From Candidatus Woykebacteria bacterium RBG_13_40_15 (GTDB lineage: Bacteria; Patescibacteriota; Microgenomatia; Woykebacterales; RBG-16-39-9b): a stretch of DNA of 64,000 nucleotides. The stretch is from contig MHCP01000014.1 in assembly GCA_001816655.1 (NCBI GenBank), positions 27,068-91,067 on the forward strand, given 5' to 3'. Below are positions 1 to 54,551 of this stretch, one piece after another; the stretch's first letter is position 1, and each line of letters starts with the position of its first letter. The translations under genes were made by a program, and so were the position numbers. The notes under the pieces were generated by a model, which ran no database searches, was not told where the DNA came from, and worked only from the letters and a program-made list of their open reading frames with translations.

Positions 1-1269
1 ATGAAAACTAAAAAAATTCATTTTATGGGGGTTGGTGGAACTGGCTGTTCAGCTGTTTATTTTATCGCTAAAAGTTTGGGGTACTCTGTTTCAGGCTGCG
101 ACAAGGAAATTTCTAGGTTTATTGGAACCGAAAAAGGAATCCAAAAAGGCCACAACGCCTTGCATCTAGTCGGAGTAGACTCTTTAGTTTACTCTCCTGC
201 TATTCCAGCCCTCGATCCTCAAAACCCTGAATTATTATCTGCCAAAGCTAGAGGTGTAGAAACTATGCCTTGGGAGAGGTTTGTTGCAAGGGAATTCCTG
301 AAGGATAAGTTTGTTATTGCGGTGTCCGGTACCCATGGCAAAAGCACGACAACGGCGATGATTGCCACGATTCTAGAGAAAGCAGGTTTAGATCCGACTT
401 GTTTAGTTGGGGCTATTGTAAATAGTTGGGGCCGAAATTTTCGTGTGGGAAAATCGAAATACTTTGTAATTGAGGCAGATGAGTACGGGGAAAAATTTTT
501 AGAATTTTCCGCGGATGCCGCTGTCATTACAAATATTGATTTTGATCACCCTGAGTATTTCAAAAACTTAGGAGAGGTGGAACTGGCATTTGAGAAGTTT
601 GTTAAAAATACAAAGGAAGGCTCGATCCTCATGACTGGCCCTGGTGTTAATATTCAAAATCCTAATGGTGAGACACTGAGAGTGGTATCCAACGGTTTTA
701 ATCTTAAGTTAATTGGGGAGTTTAATAAAACTAATGCAGCACTTGCTGCGTCGGTTGCGCGGAAGCTGGGTATTTCCGAAGAAACAATAAAAAGCGCGTT
801 GGAGAGCTTTTCAGGACTTGTTAGGCGATTCGAGTTTAAAGGCGAGGAAAAGGGTGTGGCCGTTTTTGATGATTACGCCCACCATCCAACCGCCGCTCTC
901 GAGACCTTAAAAGCCGTAAGAGAAAGGTTCCCAGACAAAAAAATCTGGTTAGTTTTTCAGCCCCACCTTTTTACGAGAACCAAGGCTCTTTTTGGCCAGT
1001 TTAAAGAAGCCTTTGAAAAAGCACCAGTTGATGAAATAATTCTGGTTGATATTTTTGCTGCAAGAGAAAAAGATACCGGAGAAATAAATAGTGGGGACCT
1101 CGCAAAAAGTATTGAAGGAAGGGAAGTAAAATATATCCCAGAGATAGAAGAAGCTGCAATTTACTTAGTGAAAGAAGTTTCTGCAGGAGACCTTGTAGTT
1201 TCTATGGGTGCTGGTGGTATCTCAAAGCTATCAGAAATTTTGCTAAAAAAATTAAAAGGAAAAGGATGA
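1..1269 (+). CDS. murC: UDP-N-acetylmuramate--L-alanine ligase
   Basis: N-terminal HFMGVGGTG dinucleotide-type motif and Mur-ligase P-loop GTHGKSTTT. 422 aa. First gene of the dcw cluster. Confidence 0.85.
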   Translation: MKTKKIHFMGVGGTGCSAVYFIAKSLGYSVSGCDKEISRFIGTEKGIQKGHNALHLVGVDSLVYSPAIPALDPQNPELLSAKARGVETMPWERFVAREFLKDKFVIAVSGTHGKSTTTAMIATILEKAGLDPTCLVGAIVNSWGRNFRVGKSKYFVIEADEYGEKFLEFSADAAVITNIDFDHPEYFKNLGEVELAFEKFVKNTKEGSILMTGPGVNIQNPNGETLRVVSNGFNLKLIGEFNKTNAALAASVARKLGISEETIKSALESFSGLVRRFEFKGEEKGVAVFDDYAHHPTAALETLKAVRERFPDKKIWLVFQPHLFTRTKALFGQFKEAFEKAPVDEIILVDIFAAREKDTGEINSGDLAKSIEGREVKYIPEIEEAAIYLVKEVSAGDLVVSMGAGGISKLSEILLKKLKGKG

Positions 1270-2764: not shown

Positions 2765-4081
2765 ATGGCAAAATACATTATTGAGGGTGGCTTTCCCTTG
2801 AAAGGGAAAGTAGCTGTTCCTGGGGCGAAAAATGCCGGTTTTAAGTTAATAATTGCGAGCCTTCTTTCCGATGAAATTTCCACTCTAAGTAACATTTCTT
2901 ATATCCGCGACGTTATTTCAGTCAAAAAAATAATTGAGGCTTTGGGTGCAAAAGTTGCGTTTTCCGATGACACAATGCAGATTAGCGGTGGAATTAAAAC
3001 TTGGGAAGTACCAGCCGAACTTGGAATAGCTTCGCGGGCTTCTTTTATGTATTTGCCGGTTCTTCTGCATAGATTTAAAAAGGGAAAAGTTAATCTTCCT
3101 GTTGGCGATAAAATTGGTGATCGTCCGATAAACTGGTTTCTTGATGGTTTAAAGAAAATGGGGGCGGCTATTGTTGAGAATGATGGTTTAGTCGAAGTTA
3201 CCGCTCCAAACGGCCTTTCTGGCTGCAACTATACTTTTCCAAAAAATTCTCATACCGGAACTGAAGGTTTGATAATGGCAGCAGCTCTTGCTAGCGGAAA
3301 AACTAAGTTAGAAAATTCAGCTGCCGAGCCTGAAATTGATGATTTAATTGCCTTTTTGAACAAAATGGGAGCAAAAATCAGGCGGGTTTCGGAACGAACG
3401 ATTGAGATTGAAGGAGTAGTTTCTTTGAAAGGCGCTGTTCATAAGGTAATGCCAGACCGAAATGAAGTTGTGACTTTTGGTTGTATTGCTCTGGGTACCA
3501 AAGGGGACATTGAAATAGAAAACGCTAACCCTCAGGTCATTAAGGCATTTCTCGAAAAAGTTAAAGAGGCCGGTGGTGGAGTTGAAATGGCAGAGGGGGG
3601 CCTGCGTATTTTTTACAAAGGGGACTTAAAATCAACTAATGTCGAGACGAAACCGTATCCTGGTTTTATGACAGACTGGCAGAGTCTATGGACGGCTTTA
3701 ATGACTCAAAACTTTGGAGAATCGACTGTTCATGAAACAATCTTTGAAAATCGTTTTGGTTTTGTCCCAAGCTTGCAAAAAATGGGAGCAAAGATTGAAT
3801 TATTTTCCCCGAAGGTTACTAACCCAGCTAGTTTTTATAACTTTGATTGGAAAAGCGAATCTGAAAAATATCCTCACGCAGCAAAAATTTTTGGCCCAAC
3901 AAGGCTGAAAGGTAGTGATTTGGAAGTTACCGACATTAGAGCTGGTGCAACTCTTGTCTTTGCGGCACTTGCAGCAGAGGGCGAAAGTAGCCTTTCTGGT
4001 ATAGAGCATATCGAAAGAGGTTACGAAGACTTAGAAGGAAGGCTTGAACGTTTAGGCGCTAGAATCGGAAAGATAGAGTAG
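2765..4081 (+). CDS. murA: UDP-N-acetylglucosamine 1-carboxyvinyltransferase
   Basis: N-terminus MAKYIIEGGFPLKGKVAVPGAKNAG is typical of MurA/EPSP-synthase-fold enzymes. 438 aa. Confidence 0.85.
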   Translation: MAKYIIEGGFPLKGKVAVPGAKNAGFKLIIASLLSDEISTLSNISYIRDVISVKKIIEALGAKVAFSDDTMQISGGIKTWEVPAELGIASRASFMYLPVLLHRFKKGKVNLPVGDKIGDRPINWFLDGLKKMGAAIVENDGLVEVTAPNGLSGCNYTFPKNSHTGTEGLIMAAALASGKTKLENSAAEPEIDDLIAFLNKMGAKIRRVSERTIEIEGVVSLKGAVHKVMPDRNEVVTFGCIALGTKGDIEIENANPQVIKAFLEKVKEAGGGVEMAEGGLRIFYKGDLKSTNVETKPYPGFMTDWQSLWTALMTQNFGESTVHETIFENRFGFVPSLQKMGAKIELFSPKVTNPASFYNFDWKSESEKYPHAAKIFGPTRLKGSDLEVTDIRAGATLVFAALAAEGESSLSGIEHIERGYEDLEGRLERLGARIGKIE

Positions 4082-4090
4082 GGCTATTTT

Positions 4091-5290
4091 ATGAATGGCA
4101 GATTTTTCAAAAAAATTTTACATACCGGACGGAGATTTGCGGCCAAGTTTTGGATGTTGACTCATTCAAAAGTACAGGTAATAGGAATTACAGGAAGTTA
4201 TGGTAAAACGTATACTACGAGTGCCATTAGTAGTGTACTTTCGGAAAAATACAAAGTTCTACAAACTGATATTAACCTCGATACTCTTTATAATGTTCCA
4301 ATTACAGTTTTAAAACTTTCTGATCAACAAAAATTAGTTTTAGAGTACGGTATTGATCATCCAAAGGAAATGAGCGGGCATCTTTTTGTAGTAAAGCCGT
4401 CTATCGCAGTGATAACTGGTATTACACCAGTTCACGCCGACCCCGCTCATTTAGGATCCCTGGAAAACATTGTTAAGGAAAAAGGAAAGTTAGCTGAAGC
4501 TGCCTCAAAAAGGAAGGGTTGGATAGTAGCAAACTGGGATGATCAACTTGCAAGAAGAATTGCAGAGAGTGTAAAGGGAAAAATTATTTTCTACGGAAAA
4601 AACAGGTATCACTGCCAGTTTTGGGCCTCTCACATAAAGGTTCTTTCAAAAGGAACAAGCTTCAAAATGCATTTCAAAGGCCAAAGCCATAATGTCAAAT
4701 TACAACTTATAGGTAAACATCACGTATATACAGCGATGGCTGCTGTTGCTGTAGGGTACCTTTGTGATCTTAAATGGAGGGAAATAATTCGAGGCTTAGA
4801 AAAAGTTAAACCGCTTCCCGGTCGTGGCAACATTGAACTTGGTCCTAAAGAATCAATAGTTTTCAATGATTCGCGTCGGGCTAACCCCGCTTCAACGGTT
4901 GCGGGGCTCCAAACCTTGGCGGACTTTCCGGCAAAAAGAAAAATTGCCGTTCTTGGAGAGATGGGGGAGCTTGGTGACTATTCCGAGGAAGGACATCGCA
5001 GCGTTGGTAGAAAGGCGGCGGAAACAAAACCTGATTATTTGATTTGTGTTGGAGAGCAGACCAAATATATTGCTGATGAAGCCGAAAAAGGAATGAAAAA
5101 AGGGAAGGTAATTTGGGTCAAAGATGTATTTGAAGCTGCTGGAGCTCTCTCTGGGGTTTTGAAAAAAGGCGACCTCTGGTATTTGAAGGGCTCTCTGTTG
5201 AAACACTTAGAGCGGATCCCTCTAATTCTAGAAGGCAAAGATGTTGATCCTGACGAAATCGCTTCAAAACGCTACGAAGTCTACACTTAA
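4091..5290 (+). CDS. murF: Mur ligase family protein, MurF-like (UDP-MurNAc-tripeptide--D-Ala-D-Ala ligase), lacking the N-terminal domain
   Basis: P-loop GITGSYGKTYTT near residue 33. C-terminal domain NDSRRANPAST...IAVLGEMGELGDYSEE resembles MurF/MurE. 399 aa, shorter than typical MurF. Confidence 0.6.
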   Translation: MNGRFFKKILHTGRRFAAKFWMLTHSKVQVIGITGSYGKTYTTSAISSVLSEKYKVLQTDINLDTLYNVPITVLKLSDQQKLVLEYGIDHPKEMSGHLFVVKPSIAVITGITPVHADPAHLGSLENIVKEKGKLAEAASKRKGWIVANWDDQLARRIAESVKGKIIFYGKNRYHCQFWASHIKVLSKGTSFKMHFKGQSHNVKLQLIGKHHVYTAMAAVAVGYLCDLKWREIIRGLEKVKPLPGRGNIELGPKESIVFNDSRRANPASTVAGLQTLADFPAKRKIAVLGEMGELGDYSEEGHRSVGRKAAETKPDYLICVGEQTKYIADEAEKGMKKGKVIWVKDVFEAAGALSGVLKKGDLWYLKGSLLKHLERIPLILEGKDVDPDEIASKRYEVYT

Positions 5291-10009: not shown

Positions 10010-10466
10010 AAAACAAAGACCAAAAACCTTCGAGATTTCAAATGTAAATTCGAATAGGAAAAAAATAATTTTTTGGATTGAAATTGTGGCCGTTTTCACT
10101 TTAATTTCTGGGATTTGCTTTAGCTTTTTAAATGTGAAAAACTTTGATTTCTCAAAATTTCTCGAGACTATAAAAAGTTCAAGTGGATTAAAAAAGGACG
10201 AAGCAGAATCTAGGGAACTTACCTTTTTGGATAAAGCGAGAAATTCAATAGATAAAAAACTTTTGTCTATTACAGAATTGAAAGAGACACCAGAAGTCCT
10301 GAGCATTAAGAGTAGGGAGGGAATTGACGTTTTCATTTCGAAAAATAAAGATTTAGAAACCCAGGTGAAGACTTTACAAACTGTTCTATCTAAAGCTAAA
10401 ATAGAGAAAAGGGAAGTTTTGTTGGTGGATTTCAGATTTGATAAACTCACTGTTCGTTACAAATAG
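9999..10466 (+). CDS. small membrane-anchored protein, possible minimal FtsQ/DivIB-like
   Basis: N-terminal TM helix. Sits between murG and ftsA, where ftsQ normally lies. No clear POTRA signature readable by eye. Confidence 0.3.
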   Translation: MLFKKQRPKTFEISNVNSNRKKIIFWIEIVAVFTLISGICFSFLNVKNFDFSKFLETIKSSSGLKKDEAESRELTFLDKARNSIDKKLLSITELKETPEVLSIKSREGIDVFISKNKDLETQVKTLQTVLSKAKIEKREVLLVDFRFDKLTVRYK

Positions 10467-25636: not shown

Positions 25637-25692
25637 TGGAGCCGATGGTCGGATTTGAACCGACGACCCACTCTTTACCTGCCCGACATCCT
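25637..25692 (-). other. tRNA 3'-half fragment (T-arm, acceptor 3' strand and CCA), near-duplicate of the tRNA-Thr 3' end
   Basis: 39-nt direct repeat (25634-25672 vs 25689-25727) with 2 mismatches. No matching 5' acceptor strand. Confidence 0.5.
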
Positions 25693-25767
25693 TGGAGCCC
25701 ATGGTCGGATTTGAACCGACAACCTGGCGCTTACGAAGCGCCTGCTCTTCCGTTGAGCTACATGGGC
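25693..25767 (-). tRNA. tRNA-Thr (anticodon CGT)
   Basis: Reverse complement GCCCATGTAGCTCAACGGAAGAGCAGGCGCTTCGTAAGCGCC...GGTTCAAATCCGACCATGGGCTCCA. Anticodon loop TTCGTAA. Confidence 0.85.
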
Positions 25768-25787
25768 CCGTCAAGGCAGGCGGGCGA

Positions 25788-25820
25788 AAGAGGCGCTCTA
25801 CCACTGAGCTACATTAGCAG
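25788..25820 (-). other. tRNA 5'-half-like fragment (acceptor GCTAATG plus D-arm GTAGCTCAGTGGTAGAGC) with no downstream anticodon/T arms
   Basis: Reverse complement reads CTGCTAATGTAGCTCAGTGGTAGAGCGCC, then diverges. Confidence 0.3.
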
Positions 25821-25911: not shown

Positions 25912-26373
25912 TTAAATGTCTCCGGGGTCGAAAGTTCCAAACTCCACGTGTGTTAAGGCTTCTTTTAACAAGTCAATCGATGGAGCATGATATTCCCGAG
26001 GAGTGAGATCTACCTCCCCCATTCTCAAATGATTAGACATCCCAGAAAGTTGTGATATATCGCTTCTAAAATCACCTGCTTTAGCGTCCAGATCTTCTAC
26101 ATCATCATCCCACTTACTGAAGGCAAAATCTGGCTGTTCTTCGTTGGTCAGCGTTTCTCTAAGAACTCGAAAAACTCCTGGCTCTTTCTCTACAACATCC
26201 ATTTGGTATGGGCCTTTTTCTCGAGAAGCAGATTCTTCCACGCGCGGAATATCTAATGTCATTGGTTTTACTTCGCTTTCCCTAGCTTCAGCCTCTTCTT
26301 GAGATTCTATTTCCTGGGCTTCTGATTCACCCATTGAAGGGATTTCACCGTCCATAAATTTAGAATAACACAA
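25912..26373 (-). CDS. acidic hypothetical protein
   Basis: 153-aa ORF rich in Glu/Asp with no recognisable domain. Confidence 0.3.
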   Translation of the reverse strand: MCYSKFMDGEIPSMGESEAQEIESQEEAEARESEVKPMTLDIPRVEESASREKGPYQMDVVEKEPGVFRVLRETLTNEEQPDFAFSKWDDDVEDLDAKAGDFRSDISQLSGMSNHLRMGEVDLTPREYHAPSIDLLKEALTHVEFGTFDPGDI

Positions 26374-26403
26374 AATTTTTATAAGTCAAAAAAGCTGGAG
26401 CGG

Positions 26404-26515
26404 TTGATGGTTCGACTTCGCTTACCACAAGCCTGGCTATTAAATGGAGCAGGTGAAGGGATTAGAACGCTAAAGCGTTCTGCGACCACTTCGTGGGCTA
26501 CGAACCCTTCCATTT
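26404..26515 (-). repeat. 112-bp insert between the tRNA-Gly 3' end and an 8-nt duplicate of that end, carrying the 22-nt core GTAGCCCACGAAGTGGTCGCAG
   Basis: TGGAGCGG at 26396-26403 and 26516-26523. 22-mer at 26480-26501 is identical to 53432-53453. Confidence 0.4.
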
Positions 26516-26590
26516 TGGAGCGGCGGACCGGATTTGAACCGGCGACCTTCTCCTTGGGAAGGAGACATTCTACCGCTGAACTACCGCCGC
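26516..26590 (-). tRNA. tRNA-Gly (anticodon CCC)
   Basis: Reverse complement GCGGCGGTAGTTCAGCGGTAGAATG.CTCCTTCCCAAGGAG...GGTTCAAATCCGGTCCGCCGCTCCA. Confidence 0.85.
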
Positions 26591-49966: not shown

Positions 49967-51070
49967 TTAACTTGCGAGTTTTTCCCAGGGGAAGCAGTCT
50001 CGTCCGAAATGACCATAGGAAGCGGTTTTCTCGTAGATGGGTTTTCTTAAATCTAACGCTGCCAATATACCGTTTACCGATAAATCCATTAGGTTCCAGG
50101 CGAAGGATTCAATTATCGAGACCTTCTTTTTCTCTGTTCCAAAGCAATTAACTGCTTTTACCAGGGGGTCTCTTTGTCCAATTACATAAGCTATTTGTAC
50201 CTCAGCCATTTCGGCTAGTTGTGCGGCAACGATGTTTTTAGCTAAAAACCTCGCTGCATACGCAGCAGAGCGATCCATCTTAGTTGGATCTTTTCCAGAA
50301 AACGCTCCACCACCAACTCGCCCGAAGGCGCCGTACGAATCAACTATTATTTTGCGACCAGTGACTCCTGTGTCAGTTGCTGGTCCTGGGGTAATCCAAA
50401 TACCCCCGCCATTAACAATTAGGTCTTCTTTAGGGGTTTTAAGACCAAACGTTTCCAATACAGGTAATACAACGAATTTCAAAAGATCTTCCTTGAGTTG
50501 AAAATTACTAATATTCTCTTCGTGGCAAGCAGCTAAAACCACCCTTTCTAATGATTTTGGTTTATTATTTTTGTATTCAAAGGTAACCTCACTTTTTCCA
50601 TCTGGCCTCAAATAGGGAATTATTTTTTTCTCTCGAACGGCATCTAATTTTTCAACGAGTTTGTGGGCAATACTTATTGGAAGGGGCATTAGTTCTGGCG
50701 TTTCACCTACCGCATAGCCAAACATCATACCTTGGTCTCCGGCGCCTCCAGTATTAACGTCGGCGGAAATTTCAGGAGATTGTTCATGAATGTAAACTTG
50801 AATATCGCTTTCTGGAGAAAATTCGAATTTCTTGTTCGTATAACCGAGGCGTTTAATTACGCCCTGGGCGATTTTTTTATAATCCAAGCTCGCTTTTGTT
50901 GTTAATTCTCCAGCAATGACCATTCGATTTTTTGTCACTAAGGTTTCCACAGCTACTCTGGAGCAGGGGTCTTGGGAGATGGCTGCATCAACAATAGCAT
51001 CAGAGATCTGGTCGCAGATTTTGTCTGGATGGCCGGCGGCGACAGATTCTGAAGTAAAGTACTTATACAC
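49967..51070 (-). CDS. metK: S-adenosylmethionine synthase
   Basis: FTSESVAAGHPDKICDQISDA..., GGGAFSGKD. GTG start with AAGGAGG RBS. Confidence 0.9.
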   Translation of the reverse strand: MYKYFTSESVAAGHPDKICDQISDAIVDAAISQDPCSRVAVETLVTKNRMVIAGELTTKASLDYKKIAQGVIKRLGYTNKKFEFSPESDIQVYIHEQSPEISADVNTGGAGDQGMMFGYAVGETPELMPLPISIAHKLVEKLDAVREKKIIPYLRPDGKSEVTFEYKNNKPKSLERVVLAACHEENISNFQLKEDLLKFVVLPVLETFGLKTPKEDLIVNGGGIWITPGPATDTGVTGRKIIVDSYGAFGRVGGGAFSGKDPTKMDRSAAYAARFLAKNIVAAQLAEMAEVQIAYVIGQRDPLVKAVNCFGTEKKKVSIIESFAWNLMDLSVNGILAALDLRKPIYEKTASYGHFGRDCFPWEKLAS

Positions 51071-51094: not shown

Positions 51095-51230
51095 TTAAAA
51101 AACACTTCCCTCAAAGAGAAGTGCCACTAAACAGTTCCCTTTTCGGGCGCATCAATTTTGGCACCCTGCCTGTTTTAGGGTTGCCGCCCTCCGAAGCTTT
51201 ACGCGAAGGAGGGGCTCGAGATGCTTAATA
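51095..51230 (-). ncRNA. SAM (S-box-like) riboswitch candidate plus terminator in the metK leader
   Basis: Minus-strand leader contains GGAGGG..GCAACC and GGTGCCAAAATT, resembling SAM-I/IV core elements. A CACTTCTC-TTTGA-GGGAAGTG-TTTTTT terminator lies just upstream of the RBS. Confidence 0.4.
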
Positions 51231-51288: not shown

Positions 51289-53325
51289 ATGGGTACCGAT
51301 CAGGTTCTTTATTGGGTTATAGGTGCAGCTTCATTAGCAATCATTTACGCTTTAGTTCTTACCCTTAGATTACTGAGGCTTCCAACTGGCGATAGTAAAA
51401 TGCAGGAGATTGCCAAGGCAATTCAGGAAGGGGCAGGTTCTTACTTAAATCGCCAGTATTTTGTTGTTGGAATAGTTGGGGTTGTAATTTTTCTTGTTAT
51501 TTGGTTCCTTATGAAACAACCGACCACTGCGGTTGGTTTTCTAGTTGGAGCGGTCGCTTCTGCAGTTGCGGGCTACATTGGTATGAATGTTGCGGTTAGA
51601 GCAAATGTTAGAACAGCCGAGTCAGCTAAAAGAGGCTTAGCAGCCGCCTTGGGTGTTGCTTTCAGGGGTGGAGCAGTGACCGGTCTTATAGTTGTGGGTC
51701 TGGCACTTTTGTCAGTTGCTCTCTTTTATTTTTTCACACGGGATGTAAAAGCTTTGATTGGTCTTGGTTTTGGTGGAAGCTTGATTTCTGTATTTGCGAG
51801 ACTTGGAGGAGGGATTTATACAAAAGGGGCTGATGTTGGTGCTGATTTGGTTGGTAAGTTGGAGGCTGGTATTCCTGAGGACGATCCCCGAAACCCGGCA
51901 GTAATTGCAGACAATGTTGGAGATAATGTCGGTGATGACGCTGGGATGGCAGCTGATCTTTTCGAAACCTACGCTGTTACCGCAATTGCCGCAATGCTGC
52001 TTGGAAGTCTAGTTTTTCCAGGCAGTAGCAGCGCAATAATTTACCCACTTGCTATTGGCGCAGTTTCTGTCGTAGCTTCAATAATCGGAACATTTTTTGT
52101 CCGGCTTATAGGGAAAAGTATCATGGGGGCTTTATATTTAGGTTTAGCAGCTTCTGGGATACTAGCTAGTATTGGCTTTTGGTTTTTGACATCGTATATT
52201 TGGGGAGGAAACCTGTCCTCTACTCAACCATATTGGATACAAGCTGTCGAAACAAATAGGGTACTACCGTTTTTCTACTGCTCCTTAATCGGAATTTTTG
52301 TTACTTTGGGAATGGTTATTATTACCGAGTTCTATACTTCGAAAAGATTTGGTTCAGTGAAAGCAATAGCTAATGCTTCGCAGACTGGGCATGGGACAAA
52401 TGTAATTACAGGGTTGGCAGTTTCTATGAAGTCTACTCTGGCTCCAATTATTTTAATTTCCGCCGCAATAATGTTAGCGTTCAACCTGGCTAGTCTTTAC
52501 GGAATTGCTATTGCTGCTATGAGCATGCTTTCGATGACCGGGATTATTGTTGCGATTGATGCCTTTGGGCCTATTACTGATAATGCCGGTGGTATTGCTG
52601 AAATGGCAGGATTGCCAGATGATGTTAGAAAAGTAACCGACGAGTTAGATGCAGTTGGAAACACGACAAAAGCGATAACTAAAGGGTACGCAATTGCAAG
52701 CGCCGCTCTTGCAGCATTGGTGCTCTTTGCTTCATTTTCCCAAGATCTTGTAGCGGCTGGAAAAATCCATGTTATCTTCAACTTAGGAGATCCAAAAGTT
52801 TTAATAGGACTTTTTATTGGGGCAGCTCTGCCTTATTACTTTGGAGCGATGGCGATGGAGGCCGTAGGGAAGACAGCAGGCGCCGTTGTTAGTGAGGTTA
52901 GAAGGCAATTCAAGGAAATAAAGGGAATAATGGAAGGAAAAGCGAAGCCCGATTACGCAAGAGCAGTTAAGATTGTTACAGCAGCTGCGCAAAGGGAAAT
53001 GATTGTCCCAGCCTTACTCCCCGTTGTTGTCCCTATCATTGTTGGTCTTTGGCTTGGACCAGAAGCGCTCGGTGGGATGTTGGTCGGTTCAATTGTTACT
53101 GGTCTTTTTGTTGCTATTTCGATGACAACCGGCGGAGCAGCTTGGGATAATGCTAAAAAGTATATCGAAGAAGGTAACCTTGGCGGTAAAGGGAGTGAGG
53201 CCCACAAAGCCGCAGTGACTGGGGATACAGTAGGGGATCCTTATAAAGACACCGCGGGACCTGCTATAAACCCCATGATAAAAGTTATTAACATTGTTGC
53301 TCTTCTATTGGTTCCGTTTCTTTAA
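51289..53325 (+). CDS. hppA: membrane-bound H+/Na+-translocating pyrophosphatase
   Basis: [22 protein letters not shown] and a 16-TM layout. 678 aa. Confidence 0.9.
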
Positions 53326-53513
53326 TCTCTTCGCGGTGTCTTTGCGATAACTACACTCCATTTTAAAATCGTTGGTTTAAAATTACGTTCCATTATCTAA
53401 AAGATACAGCTGGGCCAGCGATAAACCCTATGTAGCCCACGAAGTGGTCGCAGGATTCGAGAGTACCTAAATACTTGAGTGATTAACGAATGGATTTAGT
53501 TATGGAGAATACT

Positions 53514-53576
53514 ATAAAGGTGATCAATATAGTGGCACTTCTACTCGTACCGTTTCTTTAATTTCCTCGGTAGCGT
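53514..53576 (+). repeat. degenerate duplicate of the hppA 3' end (last 15 codons, stop and ~12 nt beyond) with only synonymous changes
   Basis: 53514-53561 encodes [15 protein letters not shown], the same peptide as 53278-53325, with 8 synonymous differences. A 173-bp insert (53341-53513) separates the copies. Confidence 0.7.
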
Positions 53577-53587
53577 TTTTGGTTTAA

Positions 53588-53989
53588 TCAATTCTCTTTT
53601 AGGCTCACGTTGAAAAAACCAGGCATTCCTCTGTAGGGAATAGGTGTTATTCTTTTCGACTCTGAAATAACATAACCATATTTATTTTTTAAGCTCCATC
53701 CTTCTAGCTCTATTAAATCTCTGCTCGCAAGATGCAGTTTAACGTCCTTGTAGAACTCAGTATCGTTTTGATATCGCTTAACATCCTTCAAAAAAGCCTT
53801 TCCTACTATTAAACCAGTTGGTAGGTTTCTAAAACCAAATCTTTCAATTACCTCTGTTTTAGTATCTTTTCTCGCTGCATAAACGTAAAACCATCCTCTA
53901 AAGCTAGTGTTTTTGGTTCTCACTTCAACCTTTTTTCTACCTGAGACTAACAATTCTGCCCAAGGTTGGCTAAGCGCTAGTGCTTTCAT
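53588..53989 (-). CDS. ASCH (PUA-like) domain protein
   Basis: ALSQPWAELLVSGRKKVEVR matches the ASCH N-terminal motif. Confidence 0.55.
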   Translation of the reverse strand: MKALALSQPWAELLVSGRKKVEVRTKNTSFRGWFYVYAARKDTKTEVIERFGFRNLPTGLIVGKAFLKDVKRYQNDTEFYKDVKLHLASRDLIELEGWSLKNKYGYVISESKRITPIPYRGMPGFFNVSLKEN

Positions 53990-54002
53990 ATTAGATTCCA
54001 GC

Positions 54003-54551
54003 TTACTCGGTTGATGCACGATTTTTATTCAACCCTTCTAGTGCCAGTTCGATTGTTTGTGGAATGTTATTTTTGCCGGTATCAAGTACTAGATTAAAAA
54101 ATTTCGGGTTTTCATAGTTATCATTTGAATAGAGTTTTTTGAATTTTGCTCGAAGCTGGTGGCGTCGCTCTTCAATTTCGCGAGGGGTTTCTTTGTGGGT
54201 GTGTTGGCGGGCTAAAATTCTTTTTGTCGCCACTTCTTTGTCGCAAACAAGTAAAATCCTAAAATTGCTCGGCAAATTTCTGGCAAACCAAGCAGAATAA
54301 TGACTATCAACCACGATCTCTTTTTTTGTTTGTAGTTTTTCAAAAATTTCCTGGTCGATTTTTTTATCCACCTCGTCAGGAATTGAGGATTTGTCCCAGA
54401 GAGGGATGTTGTGGTTTTTATGATACGCTCGAAAAAAATCACCAGCAGAAAAAAATTGCCATCCGAGCTTTTCCGCAAGGCCTTTGGCTAGAGTGGACGT
54501 GCCCGTGCCAACATCTCCGGAGACTATAATGTTTTGATATTTCGTGTTCAT
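54003..54551 (-). CDS. P-loop nucleotide kinase (cytidylate-kinase-like/AAA_17)
   Basis: Walker A IIVSGDVGTGTSTLAK. 182 aa. Confidence 0.5.
   Translation of the reverse strand: MNTKYQNIIVSGDVGTGTSTLAKGLAEKLGWQFFSAGDFFRAYHKNHNIPLWDKSSIPDEVDKKIDQEIFEKLQTKKEIVVDSHYSAWFARNLPSNFRILLVCDKEVATKRILARQHTHKETPREIEERRHQLRAKFKKLYSNDNYENPKFFNLVLDTGKNNIPQTIELALEGLNKNRASTE

Follow-up and report, generated by a model that had tools for sequence, protein, structure and literature searches.

The 64,000-nt stretch of Candidatus Woykebacteria bacterium RBG_13_40_15 analysed here (referred to as the window, with all positions numbered from its first letter) contains two copies of a short hairpin element, called E in what follows: one lies beside a tRNA-Gly gene and the other beside hppA, which encodes a membrane pyrophosphatase. 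The two loci share a 22-mer, GTAGCCCACGAAGTGGTCGCAG, which is exact at 26480-26501 on the minus strand and at 53432-53453 on the plus strand and has the same orientation relative to the neighbouring gene in both cases. As a first-pass annotation of the window had held, this identity is not due to chance: with up to three mismatches allowed there is no third copy in the window, and 100 shuffles yielded none. The same annotation had proposed that the 22-mer marks inserted DNA and that the two loci have a common layout. The former is borne out at both loci; of the latter, the succession of a working gene end and a duplicated gene-end fragment containing the core stands, whereas the insert is not bounded in the manner claimed. 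The 22-mer is the 5' module of a small mobile hairpin element and not the core of a 112-bp insert of the integrase type. On the overall explanation favoured here, Woykebacteria and related bacteria of the Candidate Phyla Radiation (CPR) probably harbour a single family of small, non-autonomous mobile elements, in which the 22-mer of both loci serves as the 5' recognition module.

At the tRNA-Gly locus, all features lie on the minus strand. The working tRNA-Gly(CCC) gene, recognized by ARAGORN at 26516-26590, has the same anticodon arm as its relatives and differs from them in the acceptor, D and T arms. Downstream of it, at a distance of 15 nt, lies a relic tRNA 3' fragment in two parts, L' (GG-AAGGG-TTCG, 26501-26511, the 5' part of a T-arm) and R' (AAT-CCCTT-CACCTGC-T-CCA, 26445-26463, corresponding to tRNA positions 58-76), between which sits a 37-nt copy of E at 26464-26500 (TAGCCCACGAAGTGGTCGCAG-AACGC-TTTA-GCGTT-CT). 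The junctions are thus GGAAGGGTTCG|E|AATCCCTTCACCTGCTCCA. The AAGGG of L' pairs with the CCCTT of R', and with E taken out the loop reads TTCGAAT, a canonical T-loop. The relic is not an in-situ copy of tRNA-Gly, as relic and working gene disagree in the acceptor and the T-stem. The 5' module of E (TAG, a hairpin h1 of CCAC-GAA-GTGG, and TCGCAG) occupies 26480-26500 and is the 22-mer minus its first G; this leading G is flanking DNA, and the element proper begins at TAG. As a 20- or 21-mer, the module heads 126 public copies.

These boundaries replace the ones first proposed, in which the terminal octamer of tRNA-Gly(CCC), TGGAGCGG, delimited an insert made up of the 112 bp between its two occurrences. 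The octamer is indeed present at 26516-26523 and again at 26396-26403, and its repetition had itself been judged weak evidence; it carries little weight, because TGGAGCGG occurs six times in the window as against 1.1 expected (the other four copies, away from tRNA-Gly, are at 3201, 31635, 32483 and 51546). The insert is the 37-nt element in the T-loop of a separate tRNA 3' fragment. The distal octamer is no insert boundary either: it is the end of a third tRNA-end fragment, GTCGAACCATCAACCGCTCCA (26396-26416), and beyond it comes GCTTTTTTGA, similar to the TCCA-TTTTTGA that flanks tRNA-Gly in two relatives, L137 and L138 (loci outside the window are designated by L numbers). In these relatives, whose neighbouring LysM genes are 82% and 73% identical to that of the window, the order is LysM, tRNA-Gly, 86 nt, tRNA-Thr. 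The site is empty: there is no E, there are no fragments and there is no att duplication. The window also has a 153-aa open reading frame (ORF) at 25912-26373(-), between tRNA-Gly and tRNA-Thr, which has no Pfam match and is absent from these closest relatives.

The hppA locus is read on the plus strand. The working gene (51289-53325), whose product matches the RBG_13_40_15 protein at 100% identity, is followed by a spacer (53326-53399) which contains a sigma-70-like site directed into the relic, TTGCGA-16-TAAAAT (53342-53369), and ends in ..ATTATCT|A. Next come L' (53400-53432), a relic copy of 11 hppA codons with seven differences, all synonymous, from the working copy at 53245-53277; an 81-nt copy of E (53433-53513), delimited by comparison with the uninterrupted hppA end and composed of the 21-mer, a hairpin P2 (AGGATTC/GAATACT), an internal loop GAGAGUA..UAUGGAG and an apical hairpin; and R' (53514-53561), a relic copy of the last 15 codons and the stop, with ten differences from 53278-53325, again all synonymous. 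Together, L' and R' make up a second copy of the last 26 codons of hppA, split by the 81 nt that start with the 21-mer. Counted on the alignment, R' is 85% identical to the closest relative (L126) and the working copy 77%. The structure is missing entirely from five other Woykebacteria hppA loci, with empty sites at hppA in relatives L126, L129, L131/132, L134 and L135. The first-pass annotation had recommended aligning the two inserts and looking in other genomes for empty sites or for a full-length element with an integrase. The inserts do not align outside the 22-mer; relatives provided the empty sites at both loci, but no integrase-bearing full-length element was present among the copies found, the longest of which hold either a hairpin domain with internal structure or, as cargo, a tRNA or gene end, and never a recombinase.

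To define the family, a genome collection with one genome per species was scanned with the exact 21-mer TAGCCCACGAAGTGGTCGCAG, which gave 22 loci, and metagenomes were scanned with the exact 20-mer, which gave 101 further loci. Including the window, the total is 126 copies, of which 107 were distinct at first count and 104 represent distinct contexts after end-finding. The core recurs beyond the window, but many copies are unrelated to gene 3' ends, being intergenic, in frame within ORFs, in stop codons or nested in other elements. Nor is the core a housekeeping segment of a tRNA or rRNA, the finding that had been named as decisive against an insert, given these unrelated contexts and the lack of an Rfam match (Rfam 15: none at either window copy at the gathering score, and none at an E-value ≤ 1 in four E-bearing loci). 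The hosts are mostly Woykebacteria or other Patescibacteria (CPR), and copy numbers are low, with two in the 64 kb of the window and at most five exact copies per metagenome-assembled genome (MAG). A scan of viral contigs found no copy, and a literature search for the sequence itself gave no match. Diverged heads, in which TAG, the hairpin and GCAG are kept, occur in L127 (TAGTCCACGAAGTAGTCGCAG) and L009 (TAGCTCTGAAGGAGCGCAG), and also in L036, L119, L046, L071 and L073. Within the window, a structure-based scan for further E-like elements returned 11 matches as against about 5 in shuffles, of which only the two known copies are convincing.

Some of the E-bearing MAGs (SMAG_U7546 and SMAG_U2959, with L020, L007, L008, L010, L018 and L021) are labelled 'Candidatus Nanoarchaeia archaeon', yet they contain a tmRNA (in L020), bacterial tRNA clusters and a Woykebacteria-like hppA (76% identity). 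To judge by these genes, the labels are probably wrong and the hosts CPR bacteria; therefore, no spread of E across domains is claimed. The 'Gammaproteobacteria' labels of L002 and L006 may likewise be wrong.

All copies of E are variations on one plan: 5'-TAG, the hairpin h1 (CCAC-GAA-GTGG, with a 2-nt bulge), GCAG, and the hairpin P2, closed by AG:CT, with a 3' end in ...CT. The 5' end is TAG in most copies and AAG in a few, and the 3' CT is found in nearly all, paired to the AG of GCAG (47-48 of 48 sequences). Mini forms, of which 23 are distinct, measure 35-37 nt and consist of two imperfect hairpins with GAA, TTTA or AAA as the P2 loop. Long forms (65-122 nt) additionally have a GA-rich internal loop that is conserved (GAGAGUA / UUACGGAG), a 3-bp helix and an apical hairpin that varies, and a second long class carries CAGUAGCUGGC...GGCAUAAGCUACGAG; the P2 loop ranges from 3 nt, via a structured domain of 30-90 nt, to cargo. 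The pairing is well supported in 48 long forms, where 97.6% of cells pair as against 88% in shuffles and 72 cells show double changes as against 27, a value reached by none of 500 shuffles; when the pairing partners are slid, pairing falls to 22-55%. Since the stems contain U-G and G-U wobbles, only the top strand folds. Folded as single-stranded DNA (ssDNA), the mini copy of the window forms two adjacent hairpins at -8.4 kcal/mol (z = -2.9). Two further hairpin insertions within E were observed: in L108 (E at ~3027, minus strand), the inner domain of one E harbours a second, diverged mini E in antisense orientation (TAGTCCAGCTTGCTGGTCGCAAAACGCTTTAGCGG), and L119 has a hairpin CTCCGATTGAATCGGAG inserted in the h1 loop (~4400-4460).

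Insertion is precise, without target duplication and without terminal inverted repeats. At hppA, ...CCC ATG|ATA AAA... at the working end corresponds to ...CCT ATG|[TAG...ACT]|ATA AAG... in the second copy. Four relic tRNA fragments likewise regain a T-loop of 7 nt once TAG..CT is taken out (GGGTTCG|AAT in the window, GGTCCG|AAT in L073, GGTTCG|ATT in L094 and GGTTCG|ATC in L118); in L101, E occupies the same position in the T-loop, but the loop left after its removal is shorter. Over 88 sites the target is TTYB|ATW, with A at +1 in 92% and T at +2 in 75% of cases and with A absent at -1 and -2; the flanking base that precedes TAG is T in 48%, C in 28%, G in 23% and A in 1%. A duplication of a TA target of the IS630/mariner kind was considered and rejected, as the net insert would then measure 35 nt; the hppA paralogue, the 7-nt T-loops and the in-frame ORFs require exactly TAG..CT, and the model is one base off in every informative case.

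The A that follows E at its 3' side completes a CTA, and TAG therefore begins both strands. This is reflected in the copies that touch genes. Thirteen copies are antisense to a gene whose stop codon they touch, and ten of these lie inside the codon (T|RR), where the stop with E present is a TAG made up of E's CT and the flanking A, and removal of E leaves a stop at the same place. In three long ORFs, E is found in frame in a 36-nt form (L012, antisense, L019 and L022). Tandem copies occur in L020, L009 and L046, and nested ones in L108, which fits the resemblance of the 3' junction of E (..CT|AT) to its target. Relative to the flanking genes, the orientation of E is unbiased, which argues for an element that acts at the level of DNA.

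The relic context seen at tRNA-Gly is not peculiar to the window. Six loci have in common an intact tRNA, a spacer of 15-84 nt, and then a 3' fragment split by E, and disruptive copies of E are confined to fragments with a working copy adjacent. Locus L073 shows how such a layout can come about. Here, an E-like element, TAGCTCGTAAAAGCGCAG-CAAGC-[complete tRNA-Thr]-GTATAATAA-GCTTG-CT|AT, holds a whole tRNA-Thr in its P2 loop and interrupts the anticodon loop of another tRNA, which is homologous to the inner one in the D arm, the variable region and the T-arm; a mini E with the exact 21-mer sits in the T-loop of the dead 3' tRNA half. The same 1-kb contig is full of tRNA debris (200-640, minus strand), including a 46-nt palindromic insert within that same anticodon loop and another diverged E (TAGTTCGCCGCCAACGAAGTGCGCAG...) in the T-loop of a fragment resembling tRNA-Thr(GGT). 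An integron-like cassette opened at the 3' end of E had also been entertained for the tRNA loci; it was rejected since the pairing partner of L' is R' rather than the working tRNA, and L073 revealed the true layout.

The window itself contains a second case of this kind. Its working tRNA-Thr(CGT), at 25693-25767 on the minus strand, interrupts an older tRNA-Thr in the anticodon loop (TTCG|TAA). The 3' half of this split predecessor (25637-25677) is identical at 41 of 41 positions to the tRNA-Thr of relatives, and its 5' half (25785-25818) departs from L138 by two mutations in the acceptor. The arms that enclose the inner tRNA, CCCGCCTGCCTTGACGG (25768-25784) and AGGATGTCGGGCAGG (25678-25692), belong as CCCGCCTGCC...GTCGGGCAGG to a second hairpin family, F (CCCGCCTGCC - 13-22 nt - GGCGGGCAGG), which is also nested within copies of E in L036 (5107-5139, minus strand) and L119 (4458-4499, plus strand). 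A further instance of F nested in E lies in L101 (~10260-10320). As far as the arrangement of the sequences can tell, L073 and the window's tRNA-Thr both demonstrate that relics arise when a hairpin element disrupts a gene while carrying the replacement as cargo. A hairpin element equipped with a spare part would survive insertion into the very gene that it replaces, and later insertions of E would persist in the displaced pieces because these are neutral DNA with T-loops that match its target. The tRNA-Gly relic of the window, for which neither a 5' half nor carrier arms were found, may have had the same origin, and so may the hppA relic.

A gene end can apparently be treated in a similar manner. 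At the methionyl-tRNA synthetase (MetRS) loci L059/L106 and L104, where the cargo is a gene 5' end, the decaying original 5' end is followed by the 21-mer, by a stretch whose pairing partner lies about 90 nt further on in the coding sequence, and by a new start with 14 codons leading into the gene. The P2 pairing so formed is kept by compensatory change between lineages (AAATT/AATTT versus AGATT/AATCT), and the relic decays (VTTPIY to VATLVY). Taken together, these loci raise the possibility, advanced here tentatively and with less confidence than the mobility of E itself, that the hairpin mini-elements of CPR bacteria, E and F (CCCGCCTGCC...GGCGGGCAGG), carry a spare part, either a whole tRNA or a missing gene end, and serially disrupt and replace essential genes, leaving stacked relics; the hppA relic would then be a maintained part of such a module.

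The hppA relic nevertheless has features of its own. On an 846-kb Woykebacteria contig (L127) whose hppA is 77% identical to that of the window, the module recurs in the same order: stop, spacer, L', E with two mismatches in its head, R', and then the downstream flank repeated. The two genomes show 91% identity over 35 nt of the spacer and have the same hexamers in TTGCGA-16-TAAAAT, yet L' and R' differ at 24 positions, of which 20 are third codon positions, with one amino-acid change. Within each genome, the differences between relic and working end are synonymous only, save one Met-to-Lys in L127. In addition, a 23-codon ORF (53490-53561) begins with an ATG inside E, in frame with R', and this ATG is conserved in L127 (MNLVSEDA-IKV...). 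These features speak for a reading of spacer, L', E and R' as a selected functional unit, for example a separately transcribed small RNA or the 23-codon ORF, which would be compatible with a mobile E. We regard it as rather unlikely, as the module is missing from the five other Woykebacteria hppA loci noted above, L' lacks a start codon and stands in a different frame relative to hppA in each of the two genomes, and the equivalent MetRS relic decays. Furthermore, the C-terminus of hppA is invariant across about 100 homologues, and for this reason a recently captured allele would also look synonymous-only. Yet recent capture conflicts with the saturated third positions of the relic, and, judging from these patterns, the module would be either selected or repeatedly re-formed from functional alleles.

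Other origins of the hppA copy were rejected. In-situ tandem duplication of the gene end cannot yield about 20% of purely synonymous divergence, the differences between the copies are not adenine-specific as in a diversity-generating retroelement with template and variable repeats (TR/VR), and for translational bypass of the gene-60 type the take-off and landing codons mismatch in both hppA loci. A parallel to the puzzle is found in L007, L027 and L037, where the gene end ...KTIYWHIR* recurs 4 nt further on as KTI(T|E|AT)WHIR*, with E inserted in the Tyr codon; six of nine codons differ, all synonymously and including CGT/AGA. Within hppA itself, nucleotide identity to L126 (0.72-0.78) exceeds that to L127 (0.58-0.66) in the first two thirds, and no longer does so from about codon 460 on, a pattern that is suggestive, though not decisive, of a recombinant patch in the 3' third. 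Around the gene, a 143-aa ASCH-domain gene (53588-54019, minus strand) lies between hppA and a cytidylate-kinase-like gene and is absent from the closest relatives, while the same gap holds different genes in L127, L129 and L135. Upstream of metK (49967-51070) there is an ordinary SAM-I/IV riboswitch (51120-51229, minus strand), which at 42.6 bits exceeds the gathering score by a small margin.

As to how E moves, its design most resembles repetitive extragenic palindromes (REPs) of the GTAG type and mini-elements derived from IS200/IS605, and a Y1/HUH route on folded single-stranded DNA is proposed for this reason, with a confidence that we would call evenly balanced. A trans-acting HUH Y1 transposase resembling REP-associated tyrosine transposases (RAYTs) would cut and rejoin the folded top strand as ssDNA. 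Both window copies landed in relics just downstream of a functional gene, one in a dead tRNA 3' fragment and the other in a dead hppA 3' end, and the T-loop of the former, GGTTCG|AAT, fits the target consensus. RAYT-like genes do occur in the clade. Among 1693 ORFs of the retrieved loci, phmmer with E. coli RayT as the query gave two matches, both in E-bearing loci (L079 and L097), and both proteins are Y1_Tnp (Pfam, 8.6e-14 and 2.6e-9). Their best NCBIfam match is REP-associated tyrosine transposase (7e-19, 68 bits, which is below the 80-bit cut-off). The L079 protein, of 192 aa, is identical to a protein of Woykebacteria RBG_16_43_9 and has many homologues of 56-73% identity that are widespread in Woykebacteria; one of them is encoded on a 140,550-nt contig, and the E of L002 is likewise on a 140,550-nt contig. 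On both sides, the RAYT-like gene is bordered by repeats of a third family, TAGCTTCAAGGGTC(A/T)GACCCTTG, in both orientations (L079, 150-960; L141, 1390-2110) in a REPtron-like manner, with single copies in L052, L102 and L119.

The likeness to the GTAG-REPs and RAYTs of E. coli, Pseudomonas and Stenotrophomonas extends to several details. In both cases, an imperfect hairpin has at its 5' foot a tag that ends in AG, with which a CT, in E at the presumed cut site, is able to pair; RAYT needs the tag at the foot of the 5' hairpin, and the A and G of the tag pair with the CT cleavage site (PMC3479197). GTAG-REPs, too, supply TAG stop codons to their neighbours, occur in frame in ORFs, show G-T pairs and may insert in palindromes (PMC3733652). 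Like E, they have no inverted terminal repeats and make no target duplication, and the 35-37-nt mini forms of E fall within the size of about 20-40 nt by which such imperfect palindromes are defined. E has a second tag-like GCAG before P2 in addition to the TAG before h1. Unlike GTAG-REPs, it consists of two different tandem hairpins, the second of which can be expanded to hold a structured domain or cargo. With IS200/IS605 and their miniature derivatives, the palindrome-associated transposable elements (PATEs), E shares ends defined by hairpins, precise insertion without duplication, a presumed ssDNA substrate and the carriage of DNA between the ends, but its two 'ends' are adjacent and pair with each other, as P2. 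No parent insertion sequence with tnpA/tnpB and the ends of E was found among the copies.

Rickettsia palindromic elements (RPEs), which measure roughly 100-150 bp, and other in-frame miniature inverted-repeat transposable elements are, like E, small palindromic repeats found in frame in coding genes and also in RNA genes; E differs in its 36-nt coding-compatible form, its defined target, its stop-codon ends and a plausible enzyme class. Phage 21 and e14 in icd, and the homing-endonuclease gene in Allomyces atp6, insert in a gene end and bring a replacement end. As in the window, the result is a working gene end beside a displaced older end with mainly synonymous differences, but here the carrier would be a hairpin of tens to a few hundred nucleotides that encodes neither a recombinase nor an endonuclease, and a whole tRNA can serve as cargo. 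The attC cores of integrons (RYYYAAC / GTTRRRY) are not visible in the alignment of E, and intI was sought only via the clustering of neighbour genes.

Several observations weigh against this interpretation of E. No enzyme can be tied to it, and the transposase thus has the standing of a candidate: a search for a Y1 gene in the 64-kb window found none, the 5' module of E lies about 200 nt upstream of a RAYT-like gene in L079 only, in a copy without a clean 3' end, and the RAYT-like genes of L079 and L141 are flanked not by E but by a different palindrome with a TAGC tag, TAGCTTCAAGGGTCWGACCC. In contrast to GTAG-REPs, the G before TAG is not conserved and belongs to the flank, the boundary appears to be CT|A instead of C|T, and E is present in few copies per genome, not tens to hundreds, some of them in ORFs and tRNA T-loops. 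In contrast to IS200/IS605, there is no fixed 4-5-nt target on the 5' side; the left flank is only T/C-rich, and it is ATW at +1 to +3, 3' of the insertion, that is conserved. Insertion into hairpin loops is no general rule, with 7.9% of sites as against 4.4% in controls. The long window copy has an ordinary folding energy (z = -0.2), and the invariance of the 21-mer is partly a selection bias, since the copies were retrieved with the exact 20/21-mer. Finally, the codon-like conservation of the hppA relic, its conserved spacer and its promoter-like site are not predicted by a simple model of a dead relic plus a parasite.

Could E instead act as RNA, as a small structured RNA, a ribozyme or an intron-like insert that is excised from transcripts or processes them? 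The strong covariation on one strand, with its G-U wobbles, the conserved GA-rich internal loops of the long forms, and junctions that meet at the base of two stacked hairpins in a geometry suited to excision are all compatible with such a role, as are the retained coding character of the hppA relic and the promoter-like site ahead of it. However, G-T pairs are equally possible in folded ssDNA, and the Rfam searches gave no family even at an E-value ≤ 1. The unbiased orientation and the 13 copies antisense to the gene whose stop they touch also speak against this reading, as does the confinement of disruptive copies to fragments beside a working copy; moreover, the copies in long ORFs are the 36-nt, frame-preserving form, as if translated rather than spliced. 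Action at the RNA level is considered improbable. Among specific candidates, an archaeal bulge-helix-bulge intron was rejected, as its central helix would depend on pairing between the constant 5' end and a 3' exon that varies, and because the hosts are bacterial (tmRNA in L020); hammerhead, twister, pistol and hairpin ribozymes were rejected for want of a core motif by eye and of an Rfam match, and TIGR-Tas guide arrays for want of arrays and tas genes.

The reading of the two inserts as sister miniature integrative elements, remnants of an integrase island between 8-nt att-like repeats with the 22-mer as att or arm site, is very improbable: tRNA 3' ends are classic integration sites, both loci have a working gene end followed by a duplicated one, and extra genes absent from relatives adjoin both (25912-26373 and 53588-54019), but the inserts share nothing alignable beyond the 22-mer, which starts a discrete 37- or 81-nt insertion inside a duplicated fragment and is no arm site, the supposed repeat measures only 8 nt and is an octamer found six times in the window, E also resides in ORFs, stop codons and other elements, and clustering of neighbour genes revealed no recurrent recombinase or transposase and no integrase linked to any of the 126 copies or to the window locus.

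What is known of REP-like elements and their Y1 transposases comes mainly from Proteobacteria, and the elements have been regarded as extragenic passengers in high copy number. By analogy, E appears to represent a design most resembling that of REPs and Y1 transposases, new in CPR bacteria, where small, gene-dense genomes hold it in low copy and in stop codons, ORFs and tRNA loops, and where its loop can hold cargo. Disruption coupled to replacement, if true, would be an undescribed route by which selfish DNA enters essential genes and drives the xenologous replacement of tRNAs and gene ends, and it would explain the odd tRNA fragments and duplicated gene ends that confuse the annotation of CPR genomes. 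E also provides a tag (TAG-hairpin-GCAG...CT) by which such events can be found, and a defined substrate for the RAYT-like enzymes of CPR bacteria.

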